Assembly (NCBI GenBank): GCA_964444815.1
Contig: CAYUIR010000001.1
Coordinates: 78,031-142,030 of the forward strand
DNA from: an uncultured Bdellovibrionales bacterium
GTDB lineage: Bacteria > Patescibacteriota > Minisyncoccia > Moranbacterales > UBA1568
Direction of reading: 5' to 3'
DNA length: 64,000 bases
Part shown: positions 13,780 to 38,405 of the stretch, piece by piece
Layout of the letters: every line of letters begins with the position of its first letter
Position numbering within the stretch: position 1 is the stretch's first letter
The notes under the pieces: model-generated
Databases searched by the model: none
Told to the model about the DNA's origin: nothing
The model's input: only the letters and a program-made list of their open reading frames with translations
Position numbers and translations under genes: made by a program

Positions 13780-14541
13780 ATGAAGAATAAATCATTCCCA
13801 ATCAGAACACGTTTTGCAAAGGACATCGTAGCGGAAGTACAGTTGCCAGAGCGCCAAATTGGGAAGATAGCTATTATTGCGAGCGGACTCCCCTCTGCCC
13901 CTGTTAAAAAGGAGTTTCTGCACTTTCTAGCTGCGCATGGTTATGTCGTTATCTTTCCTCGCTACCGCGGTACTTGGGAGAGCGATGGTGCATTTTTACG
14001 TGAATCGCCAGCGAAGGACATCGCTGATATTCTTTCTCAACTTGCGAAGAAGAAAAGCATTGTAGATCTCTTCACCAAAGAGAATATTTCTATAAAAGTT
14101 TCGACAGTTCATTTGTTCGGCTCATCATTTGGAGGACCGGCCGTACTACTAAATAGCAAGCATCCACTGGTCAAAAAAGTTATTGCTATTGCTCCTGTTA
14201 CAAATTGGCGTGTCGAAGGGGAGTCTGAGTCTTTTGTAGAGCATGTTCGTTCTACTCAGGCGACATTTGGTATGGCCTTTCGTCCGAATCATGATGGTGA
14301 TTGGTTGAAATTAATCCGGACTAATTTTTATAATCCCATTGATCATCTCGATCAAATCGATGGCAGTAAAGTCTTCATCATTCATGCTCAAGACGACACG
14401 CTTGTTCCAATCAGACCCTCGGTTGATTTCGCACAAAAAACACAATCAGCCATTTATATCAAACCGAGTGGCGGACATGGACTTCGTATGACCCACGGAT
14501 TTCTTTGGAAGAAAGTTGAGGCCTTTCTCAAGAAGCGATAG
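13780..14541 (+). CDS. alpha/beta hydrolase (S9/dienelactone-hydrolase-like)
   Basis: Nucleophile elbow GSSFGG, acid HAQDDTLVP, His in SGGHGL. Confidence 0.7.
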   Translation: MKNKSFPIRTRFAKDIVAEVQLPERQIGKIAIIASGLPSAPVKKEFLHFLAAHGYVVIFPRYRGTWESDGAFLRESPAKDIADILSQLAKKKSIVDLFTKENISIKVSTVHLFGSSFGGPAVLLNSKHPLVKKVIAIAPVTNWRVEGESESFVEHVRSTQATFGMAFRPNHDGDWLKLIRTNFYNPIDHLDQIDGSKVFIIHAQDDTLVPIRPSVDFAQKTQSAIYIKPSGGHGLRMTHGFLWKKVEAFLKKR

Positions 14542-14560
14542 CAATAAAAATTTGACATGA

Positions 14561-14602
14561 GACTCCCCTGGCGATTTTTTGAAAAAAGAGGGGAGTCTTT
14601 TT
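14561..14602 (+). terminator. rho-independent terminator after the hydrolase gene
   Basis: GACTCCCCT (14561-69) pairs with AGGGGAGTC (14589-97), followed by TTTTTA. Confidence 0.75.
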
Positions 14603-14856
14603 ATGCTCCGTACTATTGATAATACATCAAAATATTCGGATCGTTTTGATGGTATCTTTATCTCATGTCTGAGTATTCATGATTCAAGCAAAGGAGGAGG
14701 GATAGATGTATACCCCCGTAGATTCAAATGCCTCACAATCGATTATACGCATTCGTATATTCATAAAAATACAAAGCGCCAGTGGAGTACGATGATTGTA
14801 CGTGGTAGCGGATTATCTCTCTCTGGCTCTTCCTTACGTAATGTCCTATAAGTTAC

Positions 14857-14900
14857 ATTGTGAGACGTATAGACAATACTTCTCTCAAATAAGCCACGGA
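14857..14900 (+). repeat. direct repeat R1 (left copy) flanking AT-rich island I
   Basis: ATTGTGAGACGTATAGACAATACTTCTCTCAAATAAGCCACGGA. 42/44 identical to 16922-16965, with weaker similarity for about 150 nt further. Confidence 0.85.
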
Positions 14901-15095
14901 TCAAAGCTCGGTCTGGATATACCCTGTACCCATGACATACGCCACGCGTCTTTCCCCTACTACGATGGTCGGAAAAAACGAGAGTGGTATTTTGAATAAT
15001 AAAACAGAATGTAGCAAAAAATCTTCGAAAAAATCACTTCAATTTCGTAACCACCCCCCCCTACTTTTTCTTGCTTTGCGGGGGATTTACTAGAA

Positions 15096-15125
15096 AATAA
15101 AAAAGCCATCACTACAGATAGATGG
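15096..15125 (-). terminator. terminator of the ImmA-like/TM operon
   Basis: CCATC (15106-10) pairs with GATGG (15121-25). On the minus strand it is followed by a T-run. Confidence 0.6.
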
Positions 15126-15141
15126 TTTCTATAGGTCGACT

Positions 15142-15525
15142 CTATTTATTAGAATACGGATGGTTATTATATTTAATATCTGTAAAAATCCATCTCACCA
15201 TTATTTTTACGATTAAGACCGTTTCTCCCAGAGTGCCTAATGTTAATACTGAAAGAAAAGGCTGTAAATCAAAGACGTATGGTGAGTCTTTATACGTATA
15301 AAATATTACCCATATAAATACATACGTGATAATATTCTGCACCAACAGAAAAATAGGAAAAGCATATGCAAAAAACTTTCTGATGGTAAGTTTAAAAGCG
15401 GCATCTTTTTGCCATGTCTCCATTATAGAGGCAATGGCCTGATCTTTTTTGCTAGAAAAAACTTCCGCTTGTTCGGAGTAACTGAAATCACCGTTGTCTT
15501 CTGTTATTTGTGGTTCAGCAGGCAT
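15142..15525 (-). CDS. small membrane protein (2-3 TM), translationally coupled to the ImmA-like protease
   Basis: 127 aa. Acidic N-terminus then hydrophobic helices (FAYAFPIFLLVQNIITYVFIWVIFY; FLSVLTLGTLGETVLIV). Start overlaps the upstream stop by 11 nt. Confidence 0.6.
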   Translation of the reverse strand: MPAEPQITEDNGDFSYSEQAEVFSSKKDQAIASIMETWQKDAAFKLTIRKFFAYAFPIFLLVQNIITYVFIWVIFYTYKDSPYVFDLQPFLSVLTLGTLGETVLIVKIMVRWIFTDIKYNNHPYSNK

Positions 15526-16027
15526 AATCAGTTAATCCAAGATTTTTCAATCTATAAGCCATTGCAGTTTGGGAAACACCAAAGACACTTGCAATTAATG
15601 TTACATCCTTGGTTTTTGACCACCATATTTCTATTAAAGGTTTCGGCATCAGTAGACTTGCAGCAAAAGTATTTGCTTCTGCTTCTTCAGTCTTATCCTG
15701 CATTTCTAGATTCACAGTGTCTAGTCTCCAAAAAGTGTCTTTTTGTTTATCTTTGTGTAAGATGTAGTGCCCTAATTCATGAGCAATAGTAAATGACACT
15801 CTAGGAAAATACTCACCATCTGCAACATATATAGTTTTTGATACTCGATCTAGCTGTCCTAAAGCATCGGGTTCAGAAAAGTTAACCTTTTTTAAGGACA
15901 GGCCATATTTTTTAGCAACTTTCCCCAGATCTACTGGCGGAACAATTTGTTCTTCGCCATAAACTTCCGCAAGAACATCGGCTGCTTGAGCTTCTAAAGT
16001 ATTGAGTTTTTCTTGGCTGAGTTTCAT
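15515..16027 (-). CDS. ImmA/IrrE-family (COG2856-like) zinc metallopeptidase
   Basis: HEXXH as AHELGHYILH, downstream EEAEANTFAASLLMP, and a C-terminal VFGVSQTAMAYRLKNLGL tail typical of the family. Confidence 0.75.
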   Translation of the reverse strand: MKLSQEKLNTLEAQAADVLAEVYGEEQIVPPVDLGKVAKKYGLSLKKVNFSEPDALGQLDRVSKTIYVADGEYFPRVSFTIAHELGHYILHKDKQKDTFWRLDTVNLEMQDKTEEAEANTFAASLLMPKPLIEIWWSKTKDVTLIASVFGVSQTAMAYRLKNLGLTDYAC

Positions 16028-16111
16028 ATATAACTAGTTTACTACGCTTTCAGTATACCACAGGGATTGTTCCCTTTCCGCCTATTGAGTAGGTGTTATT
16101 TTTTCTATCTA

Positions 16112-16786
16112 CTAAGGAGTTGAAGATGGCGTCGTAGTAGGAATTTTATTTGGAAACTCGTAGATGATTTTTAGTAACATTTCAACAAAAGAGAGAAGAT
16201 TTTTTGCTTCTTCTTCAGTCATGATTGTAATCTCGTGATTAGCTTCATTTCCCTTTTGACGAATGTGGTCTACCCACCCTTTCGATGCCGGTGGAATATA
16301 GTTCTCATCAGATAGATATTCAACGTATTGAAGAAAGTTCAAATTTTGTGCGGCACCTTTATCTACAGCAACATGCATGAGTAGTTTTCGGCAAGATAGT
16401 ACCGTTGCAGTAAATGCATTTTTCGAATAAGCATCCCTTGCTTCTGTATAGAGATTTTTTACACCGTTGTCCGTAATTCCATTTACATCCCCACCTGGCC
16501 TAATACCAGGAGTTTGTTTTCTAGCTGCATCAAAAAATGTTGGCCTATAACAGTGATGGCAAATGTAAATTTCACCTTTTCTATCTCCACGACCATCTTC
16601 AAGTTCCCCTCGAAAAAAACCAACATTTGAAGCTAAGGAATTATTACAATAGCCACATGTATAGCTTTTTGAATTGAGAATACTCGTATTACTCCAAAAA
16701 TAGCTCATTCCATTAAAACGCTCAATATATTTATATCTTATTATACCACCAAAAATATAGTTGTAATATTTGATAAAATATGACAT
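16112..16786 (-). CDS. zinc-ribbon + DUF4145-like domain protein
   Basis: CGYC...CHHC ribbon, then a helical C-terminal domain (LSCRKLLMHVAVDKGA...WVDHIRQKGNEANHE...EEAKNLLSFVEMLLKIIYE) recalled as DUF4145. The start could be the second MSYF (16708). Confidence 0.55.
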   Translation of the reverse strand: MSYFIKYYNYIFGGIIRYKYIERFNGMSYFWSNTSILNSKSYTCGYCNNSLASNVGFFRGELEDGRGDRKGEIYICHHCYRPTFFDAARKQTPGIRPGGDVNGITDNGVKNLYTEARDAYSKNAFTATVLSCRKLLMHVAVDKGAAQNLNFLQYVEYLSDENYIPPASKGWVDHIRQKGNEANHEITIMTEEEAKNLLSFVEMLLKIIYEFPNKIPTTTPSSTP

Positions 16787-16827
16787 ATTCTTAAAATTAT
16801 ATTTATGTTCCTTTATTTAAGCCTTTT

Positions 16828-16851
16828 GTCCTTTAAATGAAATTAAAGGAC
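16828..16851. promoter_or_regulatory. 9-bp perfect inverted repeat upstream of the DUF4145 gene
   Basis: GTCCTTTAA-ATGAAA-TTAAAGGAC, 42 nt upstream of ATG 16786. Confidence 0.5.
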
Positions 16852-16921
16852 ATTTTTGTTTTAGGAGAAAACCGACTCAATTTATTTCTATTTTTACTGC
16901 CCTGCTGGTCGTTTAACTAGA

Positions 16922-16965
16922 ATTGTGAGACGTATAAACAATACTTCTCTCAAACAAGCCACGGA
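16922..16965 (+). repeat. direct repeat R2 (right copy) flanking AT-rich island I
   Basis: ATTGTGAGACGTATAAACAATACTTCTCTCAAACAAGCCACGGA. 42/44 identical to R1. Confidence 0.85.
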
Positions 16966-17127
16966 CTAAAAAGATACAGTACCGCATGTGTATTGCGCTC
17001 GATTTCCTGTTTATCCCCCTGCCCAGATGGCGTCAGATTTCAATGAGTACTTTTAAATATTGAATGAGGAAAGTTTCGGAAATTTTATGGTAAAAAATAT
17101 CGCGAGTTTTATATGCTACCCCCTACT

Positions 17128-21448: not shown

Positions 21449-21473
21449 TGCTGGGGAGGAAGGGAAATCGAAC
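21449..21473 (-). repeat. duplicated 3' end (T-loop + acceptor) of tRNA-Gln
   Basis: Minus sense GTTCGATTTCCCTTCCTCCCCAGCA, against GTTCGATCCCTTCCTCCCCAGCA in the intact gene. It abuts the S51 gene ATG. Confidence 0.8.
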
Positions 21474-21512
21474 TGCTCTCCGCCGGCTGGCGGATGCGCT
21501 CTATAGGGCTTC

Positions 21513-21532
21513 CCTGCCTACCGGCAGGCAGG
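21513..21532. repeat. 20-bp GC-rich palindromic element
   Basis: CCTGCCTACCGGCAGGCAGG. Confidence 0.85.
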
Positions 21533-21591
21533 CGCCCTCTAGTCCGGCAGTGCCGGTCACCTCAAACGGGCAAACAGGTATTTTCCCGACC

Positions 21592-21611
21592 CCTGCCTGC
21601 CGGTAGGCAGG
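21592..21611. repeat. 20-bp GC-rich palindromic element (inverse orientation of the centre)
   Basis: CCTGCCTGCCGGTAGGCAGG, the reverse complement of the 21513 copy. Confidence 0.85.
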
Positions 21612-21644
21612 CCTTTCCTCGTTCGATCTCTTCCATCATAACAC

Positions 21645-21669
21645 AAACAAAAAAGCCCCTGAAGGGACC
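21645..21669 (-). terminator. terminator after tRNA-Gln
   Basis: Minus sense GTCCC-TTCA-GGGGC followed by TTTTTTG. Confidence 0.6.
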
Positions 21670-21684
21670 TTTTGTTTGCGTATG

Positions 21685-21756
21685 CTGGGGAGGAAGGGAT
21701 CGAACCTTCGCATGGTGGGACCAGAACCCACTGCCTTACCGCTTGGCTACTCCCCA
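21685..21756 (-). tRNA. tRNA-Gln (anticodon CUG)
   Basis: Hand-folded cloverleaf: acceptor TGGGGAG/CTCCCCA, D-arm GCC/GGC, anticodon arm GTGGG-TTCTGGT-CCCAC, T-arm GAAGG-TTCGATC-CCTTC. U1-A72 as in bacterial tRNA-Gln. CCA not encoded. Confidence 0.9.
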
Positions 21757-21760
21757 GTAT

Positions 21761-22012
21761 CTATAAACTACCCAGTATTTCTTTGAGCTCCCTTCGTCCA
21801 CTCCTTGTTTTTAGGTAGAGCTCTCTCTTACGTGCTTTGTCCAGACTATCAAATCTTTCAGAGTAAATCAATCGTAGAGGCCTTCGATTCATCGTGGCCT
21901 TACACTTACCAGTATTGTGTTCTTCCAACCTTCTTTTTAGGTTATCTGTTGAACCAGTATAGGTTCGATTGTCATTTAGACTCAGAAGAACGTACACCCA
22001 GTTTTTTTGCAT
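21761..22012 (-). CDS. GIY-YIG domain nuclease (83 aa)
   Basis: WVYVLLS...YTGSTDNLKRRLEEHN...RPLRLIYSE...ARKRELYLK. ATG 22012 lies 2 nt after the tRNA-like segment ends. The stop is 4 nt from the tRNA 5' end. Confidence 0.8.
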   Translation of the reverse strand: MQKNWVYVLLSLNDNRTYTGSTDNLKRRLEEHNTGKCKATMNRRPLRLIYSERFDSLDKARKRELYLKTRSGRRELKEILGSL

Positions 22013-22014
22013 AA

Positions 22015-22110
22015 GACCAGAACCCACTGCCTTATCCGTCCTCGTTACGCTCGGCCGAGACAAGCCGCTTGGTTTACCTCGGCTCGCTATGCGAGACGGG
22101 CTACTCCCCA
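22015..22110 (-). pseudogene. decayed copy of the 5' half of tRNA-Gln with two hairpin insertions
   Basis: Minus sense TGGGGAGTAGC-[27 nt]-CCAAGCGG-[30 nt]-TAAGGCAGTGGGTTCTGGTC. All three blocks are identical to the intact gene up to the anticodon arm. Confidence 0.8.
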
Positions 22111-23837: not shown

Positions 23838-24924
23838 TTAGTTTGTTTTGAGATAACGTAGGGTGCTTTCGATAAAGGGTTCCAGGCCACCATCGAGGAC
23901 CTTACTGGTATCACTCGTCTCGACGTTGGTGCGGTGATCTTTGACCATGGTGTAGGGATGGAGCACGTAGGAGCGAATCTGATTCCCCCACTCAGCACTT
24001 TTGAACTCGCCTCGTAGCGCCCGTTTGGCCTCGGCCTCGGCTTCGAGTTTCTGCTGGAGGAGTTTGGAGCGGAGGAGCTTCATGGCTTGCTCACGATTCT
24101 GGAGTTGCGAGCGTTCGGTCTGGCAGGCGACGACAGTGTTCGTAGCGAGATGTGTGATACGGACGGCGCTCTCGGTCTTGTTGACGTTTTGACCCCCTGC
24201 CCCTGATGAGCGATACGTATCGATGCGGAGGTCTTCGGGTTTGAGTACGATAGCCGTGTCATCATTTTCGATCACCGGCATCACTTCAACCGAAGCAAAT
24301 GACGTCTGCCGAAGCGAGTTGGCATTGAACGGTGAGAGTCGCACCAGTCGATGGATACCCGCTTCACCGCGGAGATAGCCATAGGCATAGGCACCATCAA
24401 TTTCAAGCGTCACACTCTTGATACCCGCTTCACTACCACGAGTCTCATCGAGGACGCTCGACCGGAAACCATTTTGTTCGGCATAGCGGAGATACATGCG
24501 CATGAGCATCTCAGCCCAGTCCTGGGCATCGACGCCTCCGGCGCCACTCCGTACCGTAAGGAGAGCCGGAGCACTATCATACTCCCCACCGAGGAGGGTC
24601 CGGAACTCAAGCGAGCGAATCGTCTCCTCGGCGCTCTCATACTCTGGTGTGATGAGGGCCATGTCGACCCCTTCTTCCTCGGCAAAGAGCGCGAGGTTCG
24701 CGAGGGTGTCGCGGAGCGTATCAAAAGACTGGCGTTCGCGCTGGAGCGTCTCTATTTCTTGCATCACCCGTCCAGCCTTTTTGGGGTCATCCCAAAACGA
24801 CGGGCTCTCACTCTCTTTCTTGAGGACAGTGACCCGCTCGGCCTTTTTGGCAAAGTCAAAGATAGTCCTGGAGCTCCAGGAGTTTTTGTTGAAGAACGGC
24901 GACTTTTTGACTCATGTCATTCAT
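23838..24924 (-). CDS. prfB: peptide chain release factor 2, with programmed +1 frameshift
   Basis: ATG 24924, 22 codons, then TAT CTT TGA C (24864-24855). The +1 frame continues to 23838. SPF and GGQ (SGAGGQNVNK) motifs. Confidence 0.92.
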
Positions 24925-25056
24925 AGGAAAAGTATACCATATTCCGCTCTGCTCTTGAACCTTTTGAAAAACTGCGCTAGACTTTCCGAAGTGCAGAGGG
25001 AGCGGCGCACTTCAGCCAAAGGCTGATAAACTCCACGCGCAAGTCATTTTTTGAGA

Positions 25057-25129
25057 GCCGTCTTAGCTCAGTTGGTAGAGCGTGGCATTCGTAACGCCAA
25101 GGTCCGGAGTTCGATCCTCCGAGACGGCT
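25057..25129 (+). tRNA. tRNA-Thr (anticodon CGU)
   Basis: Acceptor GCCGTCT/AGACGGC, D-arm GCTC-AGTTGGTA-GAGC, anticodon loop TTCGTAA, T-arm CGGAG-TTCGATC-CTCCG. TTGAAC-17-TAGACT promoter about 80 nt upstream. Confidence 0.9.
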
Positions 25130-25146
25130 CTCAGAAAATAACACGC

Positions 25147-25196
25147 AGGTCTCAGGTTCCCTGCCCGCCTTTGGAGGGGATCCTGGAAGGTGGCTC
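25147..25196 (+). pseudogene. tRNA 3'-half-like remnant with a hairpin inserted in the T-loop
   Basis: AGGTCTCAGGTTC-[CCTGCCCGCCTTTGGAGGGG]-ATCCTGGAAGGTGGCTC. T-stem CAGG/CCTG is retained. Confidence 0.5.
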
Positions 25197-25215
25197 AAAA
25201 GTAAATATGACTGGG

Positions 25216-25276
25216 GTAACGCCAAGGTCCCAAGTTCCCTGCCTGCCGGCAGGCAGGAATCCCGGTCATCGGCTCC
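25216..25276 (+). pseudogene. tRNA-Thr 3'-half copy with the 20-bp palindrome inserted in the T-loop
   Basis: GTAACGCCAAGGTCC is identical to tRNA-Thr positions 35-49. It continues CAAGTTC-[CCTGCCTGCCGGCAGGCAGG]-AATCCCGGTCATCGGCTC. Confidence 0.7.
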
Positions 25277-25280
25277 ATAG

Positions 25281-25309
25281 AAAAAACGCCTTCATAAAGG
25301 CGTTTTTTT
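25281..25309. terminator. bidirectional terminator
   Basis: AAAAAACGCCTT-CATA-AAGGCGTTTTTTT. Confidence 0.85.
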
Positions 25310-30702: not shown

Positions 30703-30736
30703 ACTTGACCGGGCTTTTTCTTGTCAATAATTTAAT

Positions 30737-30757
30737 TACGTAATTAGTTACGTAATT
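30737..30757. promoter_or_regulatory. TACGTAATT-AGT-TACGTAATT site A
   Basis: Part of the near-palindrome AATTACGTAATTAGTTACGTAATT, directly after a terminator. Confidence 0.6.
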
Positions 30758-30852
30758 CTTCTTTCACTTGACCATTGACGAAGGCGGCATTTCATGCCAA
30801 GGTATGAACATTCGACAAGAAAATTCTTGTTGCAAACCACACAGGAGGTGCG

Positions 30853-32491: not shown

Positions 32492-32563
32492 CAAGCGGAC
32501 AGCCCGAGCACAAAGCAGAACTCAACGCCGACTCTCCACGTGAGGGCCGGCTTTTTTCTTTGT

Positions 32564-32584
32564 TACGTAATTAATTACGTAATT
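32564..32584. promoter_or_regulatory. TACGTAATT-AAT-TACGTAATT site B
   Basis: Lies within the perfect 20-nt palindrome TTACGTAATTAATTACGTAA (32563-32582), directly after a terminator. Confidence 0.6.
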
Positions 32585-33160
32585 CTATTGCATATAAATT
32601 TCTTCCGTTGATTGTAAAAGGTCCATTATCTCATCGTTGTGCATACCACGCGCCACAGCGTACTCCAGATACTTAAGAGAATTTTCATGCTGTTCGGCAT
32701 CATAGGCATCGACTCCATCGAGGGCCAAGATGACTTCATAGTCACGCATGTAGGCGTCGATAGCGGTCGTTCGGACGCACGTCATCGTATTGATACCAGT
32801 GAGAATGAGCGTATCAATGCCCTTTGCTACCAAGTAGGTTTCGAGGTCGGTATTGAAAAATGAACTAAAACGCTTTTTTACTATCTCTCTGTCGTCGGCA
32901 TCACGGTGCAGTTCGGGCAGCAACCTCACACCATCAGTACCCTCTATGGTCACCGGCTTGTTGTGCTTGCGATTGTAGAGTGGAGCATCAGAGAGATCGG
33001 CTTTGTATTCCTGACGTATCCAAATGACCGGGATGCCTCGAGTGTGAGCCCTATCCACAAGTGCATTCACCGAGTTTGTGAGCTTTTCCCGGCGTTCTGC
33101 TAACGGACCGCTAAGGAAAAATTCTTGCTGCAGATCAATAACGAGTAACGCTGGTTGCAT
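32585..33160 (-). CDS. isochorismatase-family cysteine hydrolase (nicotinamidase-like)
   Basis: ALLVIDLQQEF, IPVIWIRQEY, LTGINTMTCVRTTAIDA (catalytic Cys context). Start set at ATG 33160. Confidence 0.8.
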   Translation of the reverse strand: MQPALLVIDLQQEFFLSGPLAERREKLTNSVNALVDRAHTRGIPVIWIRQEYKADLSDAPLYNRKHNKPVTIEGTDGVRLLPELHRDADDREIVKKRFSSFFNTDLETYLVAKGIDTLILTGINTMTCVRTTAIDAYMRDYEVILALDGVDAYDAEQHENSLKYLEYAVARGMHNDEIMDLLQSTEEIYMQ

Positions 33161-38364: not shown

Positions 38365-38384
38365 ATGATTATATTTACTACTTT

Positions 38385-38405
38385 AATTACGTACTCAATT
38401 ACTTA
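38385..38405. promoter_or_regulatory. TACGTAATT-like site C just upstream of dnaK
   Basis: Plus strand AATTACGTA-CTC-AATTACTTA, which in minus sense is TAAGTAATT-GAG-TACGTAATT. Lies 21-41 nt upstream of the dnaK ATG. Confidence 0.5.

Follow-up and report, generated by a model that had tools for sequence, protein, structure and literature searches.

Interrupted tRNA-Thr 3' halves and a dispersed 20-nt palindrome beside the tRNA genes of a Moranbacteria-like genome

The window analysed here is the whole 64,000-nucleotide (nt) stretch of contig CAYUIR010000001.1 (assembly GCA_964444815.1). It holds only two tRNA genes, both intact, and each is accompanied by tRNA fragments and hairpins (Table 1). 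Downstream of tRNA-Thr lie two segments resembling tRNA 3' halves (copies 1 and 2), each interrupted by a hairpin in the T-loop; the hairpin of copy 2 is a perfect 20-nt palindrome, called P1 in the following. The tRNA-Gln gene is accompanied by two further copies of P1 and by a small GIY-YIG nuclease gene located 3.3 kb from the tRNA-Thr copies. An earlier note on this DNA had drawn attention to copies 1 and 2 and had proposed serial scars of an element targeting T-loop DNA, or a tRNA-derived repeat family. Our results rather point to two superimposed layers, namely serial replacement of the tRNA-Thr gene and hairpin insertion into the leftovers, both probably driven by GIY-YIG enzymes; we put the probability of this reading at roughly 0.7.

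Table 1. Features of the tRNA-Thr and tRNA-Gln loci in the window ("displaced" stands for the interpretation proposed in the text).
Feature	Position	Strand	Basis
B-type tRNA-Thr central fragment (about nt 14-48), decayed, older, 5' of the intact gene	24999-25045	+	Local alignment to allele B
15-nt hairpin TCAGCCAAAGGCTGA in the anticodon loop of the B-type fragment	25012-25026	+	
Intact tRNA-Thr(CGT), allele A, acceptor stem GCCGTCT/AGACGGC	25057-25130	+	ARAGORN; Rfam tRNA, 62.3 bits
Copy 1: displaced tRNA-Thr 3' half, allele B, reaching from the anticodon loop to the 3' end	25139-25197	+	Alignment to L133
19-nt imperfect hairpin between GGTTC and GATCC of the copy 1 T-loop	25160-25178	+	Gap in alignment to allele B
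17-nt trailing flank travelling with allele B, aaagtaaatatgactgg	25198-25214	+	Same sequence after intact allele B in L133
Copy 2: mosaic displaced 3' half	25216-25277	+	Family D2; match to L192
P1, perfect 20-nt palindrome CCTGCCTGCCGGCAGGCAGG, between C56 and A57 of the copy 2 T-loop	25238-25257	+	Inverted repeat I3; no target-site duplication
Bidirectional intrinsic terminator common to the tRNA-Thr unit and the convergent DsbA-like gene	25281-25309	.	Inverted repeat I2, then T and A runs
Displaced tRNA-Gln 3' fragment (T-loop to 3' end)	21449-21473	-	nt 58-73 100% identical
Hairpin-rich region X, between the tRNA-Gln terminator and the 3' fragment	21474-21634	-	DNA fold z = -2.9
P1 copy, one mismatch, in the loop of hairpin CTAGAGGGC-GGAA-GCCCTATAG	21513-21532	.	
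P1 copy, one mismatch, X site 1, cgaacgaggaaagg^ggtcggg	21592-21611	.	
tRNA-Gln terminator	21649-21673		
Intact tRNA-Gln(CTG)	21684-21756	-	ARAGORN, Rfam
83-aa single-domain GIY-YIG gene	21761-22012	-	Pfam PF01541, E=4e-16
Displaced native 5' part of tRNA-Gln (nt 1 to about 39)	22015-22110	-	Sequence comparison with L137

The tRNA-Thr gene and its two 3' halves

Copies 1 and 2 both began at GTAA of the anticodon loop and were interrupted at one shared T-loop position, TTC^RA. The tRNA-Thr pieces are separated by spacers of just 8 and 17 nt, and independent assemblies from other samples displayed the same stretch at 100% identity (L002; compared loci are designated by L numbers throughout). The earlier note had described two 3'-half-like segments after the intact gene, the latter being called by both ARAGORN and Rfam. 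The segments were confirmed, and both matched real alleles in relatives. Together with its trailing flank, copy 1 was identical to the 3' half and flank of allele B in L133 at 54 of 58 aligned positions, bar one clean 19-nt gap. Its layout had been recognised correctly, although the span first given for it (25147-25196) falls slightly short of the true extent. The description of its insert as degenerate held for the left arm, CCTGCCCGCC, which agrees with P1 at 9 of 10 positions, but not for the right arm, which is unrelated to P1 (about 3-4 of 10, counted by eye). Likewise, the T-stem pairing CAGG/CCTG is present, but only with a one-base register shift. Mere decay of P1 was rejected as the origin of the copy 1 insert, since these unequal arms lie in a fragment that is otherwise 93% conserved.

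Copy 2 was a mosaic. Its first 15 nt, GTAACGCCAAGGTCC, are those of positions 35-49 of allele A (BLAST E=4e-5, 800-nt flank), an identity that had already been reported and that was upheld. They are followed by CAAGTTC, the 20-nt palindrome and then AATCCCGGTCATCGGCTCCA. The 3' side of the T-loop, the acceptor strand, CCA and the trailer corresponded to the C-type allele found in L192 (27 of 28 positions), and the T-stem of copy 2 is broken. Within the intact tRNA-Thr of L192, GGTTCAATCCCGG constitutes a clean empty site for the 20-nt insert, without target duplication, in agreement with the previous placement of a 20-bp palindrome inside this T-loop. Since the empty state is a working tRNA T-loop, the polarity at this position is that of an insertion.

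Homologues of the DsbA-like protein assign the organism to Moranbacteria-like Patescibacteria, and orthologous loci (DsbA-tRNAThr-prfB) were gathered through these and through homologues of neighbouring proteins. Three tRNA-Thr alleles with different acceptor stems circulate among them: A (GCCGTCT), intact in the window and in L134-136; B (GCCACCT), intact in L133, L138 and L188; and C (GCCGATG), intact in L137, a C-type allele being found in L192. Allele C stands alone in L137, as does B in L138 and L188. In L134-136, A is followed by a C-type fragment (C') without T-loop, while the order in L133 is a 5' fragment of C whose D-loop holds a 38-nt hairpin, then the B gene, a 3' half of A without interruption, and finally the C-type fragment C'. 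The window shows a further arrangement, with A, the 3' half of B and the mosaic A/C 3' half. Fragments homologous to the decayed B-type fragment upstream of the gene were present in L134 and L138, with other hairpins. The copy array thus varied among relatives at 95% amino-acid identity and was absent in L137, L138, L188 and L190. Across the fetched loci, tRNA parts were polar: all 5' parts preceded the intact gene and all 3' parts came after it (61 hits versus 9 in the control). The 5' boundaries of fragments clustered in two places, the anticodon loop and the junction between variable region and T-arm, and some P1-bearing fragments were still 100% identical to the resident gene.

These alignments showed that the copies derive from different tRNA-Thr alleles; they appear to be displaced 3' halves left by repeated gene replacement. 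Copy 1 is the leftover of a B-type allele, and copy 2 a mosaic leftover combining a C-type 3' part with 15 nt of the resident gene. Since the alleles differ in both their acceptor and anticodon stems, the whole gene, and not half of it, must have been replaced. Tandem duplication was rejected as the source of the fragments, since fragment and intact gene are followed by different trailers. The comparison across relatives that the earlier note had recommended showed a polymorphic locus whose copies are the 3' halves of other alleles. Its idea of serial scars stands, though as scars of serial tRNA replacement and not of a T-loop-targeting element (P1 itself interrupts T-loops in just about 1-2% of 187 copies, see below). 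A tRNA-derived repeat family found no support. Chance similarity of the tRNA-like flanks, which had been considered as a refutation, does not apply either: the copies match real tRNA-Thr alleles, though P1 occurs in many contexts.

As the only terminator comes after both copies, these are expected in the primary transcript of the tRNA. They might consequently be functional RNA parts co-transcribed with tRNA-Thr and maintained by selection (processing or terminator structures, tRNA-half decoys), and the T-stems flanking P1 are intact in several metagenome cases. Yet, the array varies between close relatives and is missing from four of the loci named above, and neither copy in the window retains a regular T-stem. 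Moreover, Rfam searches of the tRNA-Thr trailer, as well as of region X and the tRNA-Gln trailer, returned no family besides tRNA itself at gathering or permissive thresholds. We regard such a function as highly improbable.

The P1 palindrome

In the window, P1 occurred in three copies per 64 kb versus 0.01 expected, all of them beside its only two tRNAs. A genome scan restricted to one genome per species (596 Gb, for which about 1-2 chance matches were estimated) uncovered unchanged P1 in at least 120 genome loci from many phyla, including, among the matches listed, Patescibacteria, Bacteroidota, Omnitrophota, Planctomycetota, Nitrospirota, Chloroflexota and Proteobacteria. It was also present in genomes of cultured isolates and in one record titled complete chromosome, originating from many assembly projects, and 48 IMG/VR viral stretches carried it. 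Winogradskyella echinorum KCTC 22026, Olivibacter oleidegradans CCM 7765, Flagellimonas yonaguniensis and the curated WWE3 genome are examples of complete genomes with P1. No description of the palindrome sequence was found in the literature searched. A short perfect palindrome shared by so many unrelated assemblies resembles an adapter, and several short contigs end at the palindromes, so that a library or assembly artefact, or else chance similarity, had to be considered. This explanation can practically be dismissed. Besides the excess of copies in the window and the occurrences in isolates and in the chromosome record, independent assemblies from several samples agreed across P1 sites at 97-100% identity, and the flanks in the window match real tRNA-Thr alleles of relatives.

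Relatives displayed P1 as filled or empty at identical sites, and none of four filled/empty comparisons revealed a target-site duplication. Site 1 of region X was filled in the window, L138 and L075 but empty in L133, L134 and L137. The other P1 copy of region X is a clean 20-nt insertion without duplication, at a site that is empty in L133, L134, L137 and L075. Judged from such alignments, P1 was shown to behave as an insertion without target duplication, its polarity included. It is a dispersed 20-nt micro-element forming a layer separate from tRNA replacement, and behaves as a tiny non-autonomous dispersed element.

An alternative is that P1 is not mobile by itself and spreads only by vertical descent and by homologous recombination or gene conversion among tRNA-like and X-type repeats. 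Region X is indeed repeated within a genome, the tRNA-Ala copy in L075 carrying P1 at site 1 and the tRNA-Gln copy in L133 lacking it, and copy 2 is clearly a recombinant mosaic. However, the T-arms in which P1 was found belong to at least ten isotypes whose stems are unrelated, and P1 also occupies D-arms, loops of unrelated hairpins, other copies of itself and positions between ordinary genes. Such settings were encountered in many phyla and in viral contigs, and homology never extended beyond the 20 nt, which renders spread by recombination alone very improbable.

The flanks of P1 formed perfect stems of at least 6 bp in 10.4% of 182 copies, versus 1.9% of shuffled flank pairs. P1 was enriched in the loops of hairpins and tRNA fragments; it was also nested at the centre of other P1 copies and in the loops of GTCAT-type hairpins. 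In sets collected without any flank requirement, the T-loop consensus was interrupted in just about 1-2% of 187 copies. The T-loop is thus one favoured exposed loop, and P1 displays a preference for exposed hairpin loops instead of T-loop specificity.

The insertion point shared by copies 1 and 2, previously singled out as unusual, is nonetheless real and recurs elsewhere. A metagenome scan for GTTC followed by P1 yielded at least 122 sites (counts taken from the matches listed), 29 of the 122 being good T-arms interrupted at TTC^RA and at least 12 being D-arms read on the other strand. The majority of these T-arms (23/29) were located at most 500 nt from an intact tRNA, and ten isotypes were represented. 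Conversely, at least 18 metagenome tRNA genes had a P1-bearing T-arm within 500 nt downstream, mostly 19-120 nt away. In an unrelated metagenome-assembled genome (MAG; L053), five 3' halves are packed into about 420 nt downstream of tRNA-Thr. The last half carries P1 after GGTTC, and the first one a different hairpin at the same T-loop point.

An intron-like role of P1 in unique functional tRNAs was rejected as a general explanation after P1 had been removed and ARAGORN re-run. Only six full-length tRNAs were healed in this way, four of which have an intact same-isotype copy in the same locus. Introns and split tRNAs are recognised by the 37/38 site or a group I intron and by a sole gene copy; the inserts found here are instead 19-20 nt long and located in T- and D-loops of truncated copies adjoining an intact gene. 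In one IMG/VR contig (L171:2239-2330), a tRNA-Met with P1 in its variable region still scored 50 bits with the Rfam tRNA model; in this position the palindrome may be tolerated as an additional arm of a working tRNA.

Two other P1 contexts deserve mention. Seven metagenome contigs (L201, L210, L215, L223, L252, L272 and L276) share the sequence ggggagaggcagtcgggttc[P1]caaagctttagaatgcgggtc, with P1 at the same point. No Rfam family was detected in L201, L210, L223 or L252, and the conserved sequence may represent an undescribed structured RNA or element. A second palindrome family, P2 (TCCGCCAGCCGGCGGA), occurs at 21479-21494 of the window, and close variants of it adjoin P1 in the unrelated genomes L026 and L034.

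Small GIY-YIG genes and split tRNA genes

The tRNA-Gln locus displayed, in minus-strand order, a tRNA-Gln 5' part, the GIY-YIG gene, intact tRNA-Gln, its terminator, the hairpin-rich region X with two P1 copies and P2, and a 3' fragment. The GIY-YIG stop codon lies 5 nt before the 5' end of tRNA-Gln, and its ATG 2 nt past the displaced 5' fragment. This 5' part contains two hairpin-containing D-arm inserts (22072-22098 and 22035-22064), and its upstream sequence is the one preceding the intact gene in L137. The cassette is shared with L138 and L188, whereas L133, L134 and L137 lack it and have an uninterrupted tRNA-Gln. PF01541 covers residues 20-90 of the GIY-YIG open reading frame (ORF), with no other Pfam domain. 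Among solved structures (PDB), the UPF0213 proteins BH0048 and EF2693 come closest, and NCBIfam returned only a weak match to a group I intron endonuclease. Region X is closed by a 12-bp inverted repeat of T-arm sequence; it is kept in L133, L134, L137 and L138, and also follows tRNA-Ala in L075. In L188 (9527-11044) and L190 (9224-10768), tRNA-Gln has a large serine recombinase gene directly beside it, indicating that the same tRNA is also used by a conventional integrative element.

The association was not restricted to the window. Among the fetched loci, 20 of 24 small GIY-YIG ORFs were located within 300 nt of P1, versus 4.2 expected, and 9 of 13 distinct ones were closely followed by a same-strand tRNA (at most 30 nt away in eight of them, and overlapping in L130). 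The tRNAs concerned were of isotypes Gln, Arg, Leu, Lys, Val and Met. These loci had been chosen for holding P1, a choice on which both the tRNA and the GIY-YIG frequencies are conditional. P1, tRNA fragments and small GIY-YIG genes co-localise, and no description of GIY-YIG combined with tRNA insertion was found in the literature searched. In L235 (1-500), tandem tRNA-Arg(CCT) pseudogenes alternate with GIY-YIG ORFs, P1 occupying the T-loop of each pseudogene; the array looks like serial cassette insertion with the cargo still intact.

A more conventional reading sees in the fragments att-site scars. Elements with a tyrosine or serine integrase (prophages, integrative and conjugative elements, or remnants resembling cis-mobilisable elements) would have entered the tRNA-Thr anticodon loop repeatedly and left attR-type 3' copies while their bodies were deleted, the palindromes being unrelated REP-like insertions. 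Serial accretion and direct partial copies beside an intact gene are common to both situations, as are boundaries in the anticodon loop or, in the case of the tRNA-Gln 3' fragment, in the T-loop. According to the Williams 2002 classes, these two loops are said to be classic integrase crossover sites. That element integration yields partial tRNA genes is well known (PMC9897764), and the serine recombinases of L188 and L190 point in the same direction. Several observations nevertheless argue against it. No integrase or recombinase was present among the ORFs scanned with Pfam (window 13.7-33 kb), and no cargo is left in the short spacers, a tight layout that recurs in L053; the at least 18 metagenome tRNA genes mentioned above are likewise followed by their P1-bearing T-arm, mostly at short distance. 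The fragments stem from different alleles, and a 3'-half swap between acceptor and anticodon stems that differ would result in a non-functional hybrid. Furthermore, 5' fragments exist upstream as well, and where cargo survives it is a GIY-YIG ORF, not an integrase. On balance, att-site scars are an unlikely, though not negligible, explanation.

Under the two-layer reading, incoming tRNA-bearing DNA would have replaced the tRNA-Thr gene several times. Each replacement would have shifted the former 3' half (everything from the anticodon loop on) downstream, and in relatives former 5' pieces would also have moved upstream. Freed from selection, the leftovers would then have taken hairpin inserts in the T-loop at TTC^RA, P1 in one case and a partly P1-like 19-nt hairpin in the other. 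Both layers would probably be driven by small single-domain GIY-YIG nucleases like the one in the split tRNA-Gln; by analogy with Ssn (see below), these enzymes may act on hairpins in single-stranded DNA (ssDNA), such as extruded arms of tRNA genes. The same analogy leads us to infer that the enzyme inserting P1 may be a small GIY-YIG nuclease, P1 being either its cognate hairpin or a passenger. The cassettes would survive through bringing a replacement tRNA part.

Apart from the way the fetched loci were chosen, several results weigh against this reading. Neither the window nor the relatives examined had a GIY-YIG gene or remnant at the tRNA-Thr locus, and with spacers of 8-17 nt any arriving cargo must now be gone from there. 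The right arm of the copy 1 insert does not correspond to P1. A Pfam screen of the 150 ORFs nearest P1 revealed no enriched enzyme family, the neighbours being of housekeeping type; there was no transposase enrichment among the nearest ORFs, nor was any Y1 transposase seen among those adjoining P1. The Ssn repeat motif SRM (HGTCWY..RNCYNB) had no match in the 64-kb window, versus 0.4 in random sequence. Most P1 copies were located outside recognisable hairpin loops, and many, mostly in Bacteroidota, stood between 6-9-nt direct repeats or in short tandem arrays, which implies that one simple insertion rule does not fit all P1 copies. Such direct-repeat and tandem contexts (L016, L023, L078, L092, L118, L296 and others) may be footprints of repeated insertion and excision.

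A wider proposition is that P1 and small GIY-YIG genes belong together in a mobile system that crosses phyla and has so far escaped description. Such a system would enter tRNA genes via ssDNA hairpin loops (T-, D- and anticodon arms) and carry a replacement tRNA piece, so that the host keeps a working gene, while the displaced pieces are marked by the 20-nt palindrome. This proposition is tentative and we consider it somewhat doubtful at present. If true, P1 would rank with the smallest known mobile DNA elements, and tRNA genes of candidate phyla radiation bacteria and several other phyla would be overwritten by small nuclease cassettes. This would be a source of tRNA pseudogenes and fragments that confuse annotation, and of repeats at which short-read assemblies break. 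An exact 20-nt palindrome shared across phyla and viral contigs would call for an insertion mechanism yet to be described. P1 would also become a concrete candidate substrate for the poorly understood Ssn-like small GIY-YIG nucleases acting on ssDNA, a group of interest to biotechnology. Since P1 occurs in several cultured Bacteroidota, laboratory testing is feasible.

Known systems and other features of the window

Ssn/SRM, a GIY-YIG single-strand nuclease with its hairpin repeats, is the closest known analogue. Ssn-family proteins bind hairpin repeats in ssDNA and cut nearby, and the repeats flank their genes (Chenal et al. 2025, PMC11893778). Both systems combine a GIY-YIG-only protein (about 80-100 aa, here 83 aa) with a hairpin-gene-hairpin layout in which the nuclease gene is spatially tied to the hairpin repeat. 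In both, short GC-rich hairpin repeats (NTS/SRM in the case of Ssn) cluster around the gene, are dispersed in the genome as well, and have similar counterparts across phyla. Yet, P1 is a perfectly symmetric 20-mer without the oriented conserved flank of Ssn repeats, and the hairpins flanking the GIY-YIG gene of the window are of other types (P1, P2 and others), not SRM. The gene further distinguishes itself by its location in split tRNA genes, the word 'tRNA' being absent from the main text of PMC11893778.

At the level of the palindrome, P1 is reminiscent of REP/REPIN (RAYT) and IS200/IS605-derived elements, which are also short extragenic non-autonomous palindromes without target duplication. 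These are thought to be handled as ssDNA hairpins. The two P1 copies downstream of tRNA-Gln, inverted and 59 nt apart, resemble a REPIN. REPs, however, are lineage-specific and imperfect with a conserved GTAG-type head, whereas P1 is identical across phyla and its listed flanks displayed no conserved head (by eye). Mobile GC clusters and double-hairpin elements of fungal mitochondria are organellar, lineage-specific GC-rich palindromes of 30-60 nt. Like P1, they are tiny, insert in other hairpins and adjoin tRNA genes, but they have no link to GIY-YIG-tRNA cassettes.

Phage T4 SegB is a free-standing GIY-YIG homing endonuclease in a tRNA cluster (PMC2330249). The location of a GIY-YIG gene among tRNA genes and its presence/absence polymorphism between relatives are common features. 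SegB-type enzymes are larger, with a DNA-binding domain; they cut double-stranded DNA and spread by homologous repair without target duplication. The protein encountered here has 83 aa only, and the target tRNA is left as duplicated fragments.

A few minor observations were made in the window and its relatives. The prfB gene (23838 to about 24926, minus strand) is split by ORF callers because it contains a classic programmed +1 frameshift site, CTT TGA C, at 24855-24861. A low-GC island (14000-17000, 0.39-0.43) encodes an IrrE-like M78 peptidase (15515-16027) together with a DUF4145 protein (16112-16786). Direct repeats of 63 nt (14843-14905 and 16908-16970; 84% identity) bracket this segment, which may represent an inserted island or a defence module. 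An AT-rich palindromic motif, TTACGTAATTAATTACGTAATT, is repeated in intergenic positions at 30715-30759, 32554-32589 and 38366-38396, and may correspond to operator sites. The MAG comprising L075 and L133 (GCA_964500505.1) is labelled 'Bdellovibrionales' while its proteins are 95% identical to those of the Moranbacteria-like window, and this bin is probably mislabelled or mixed.

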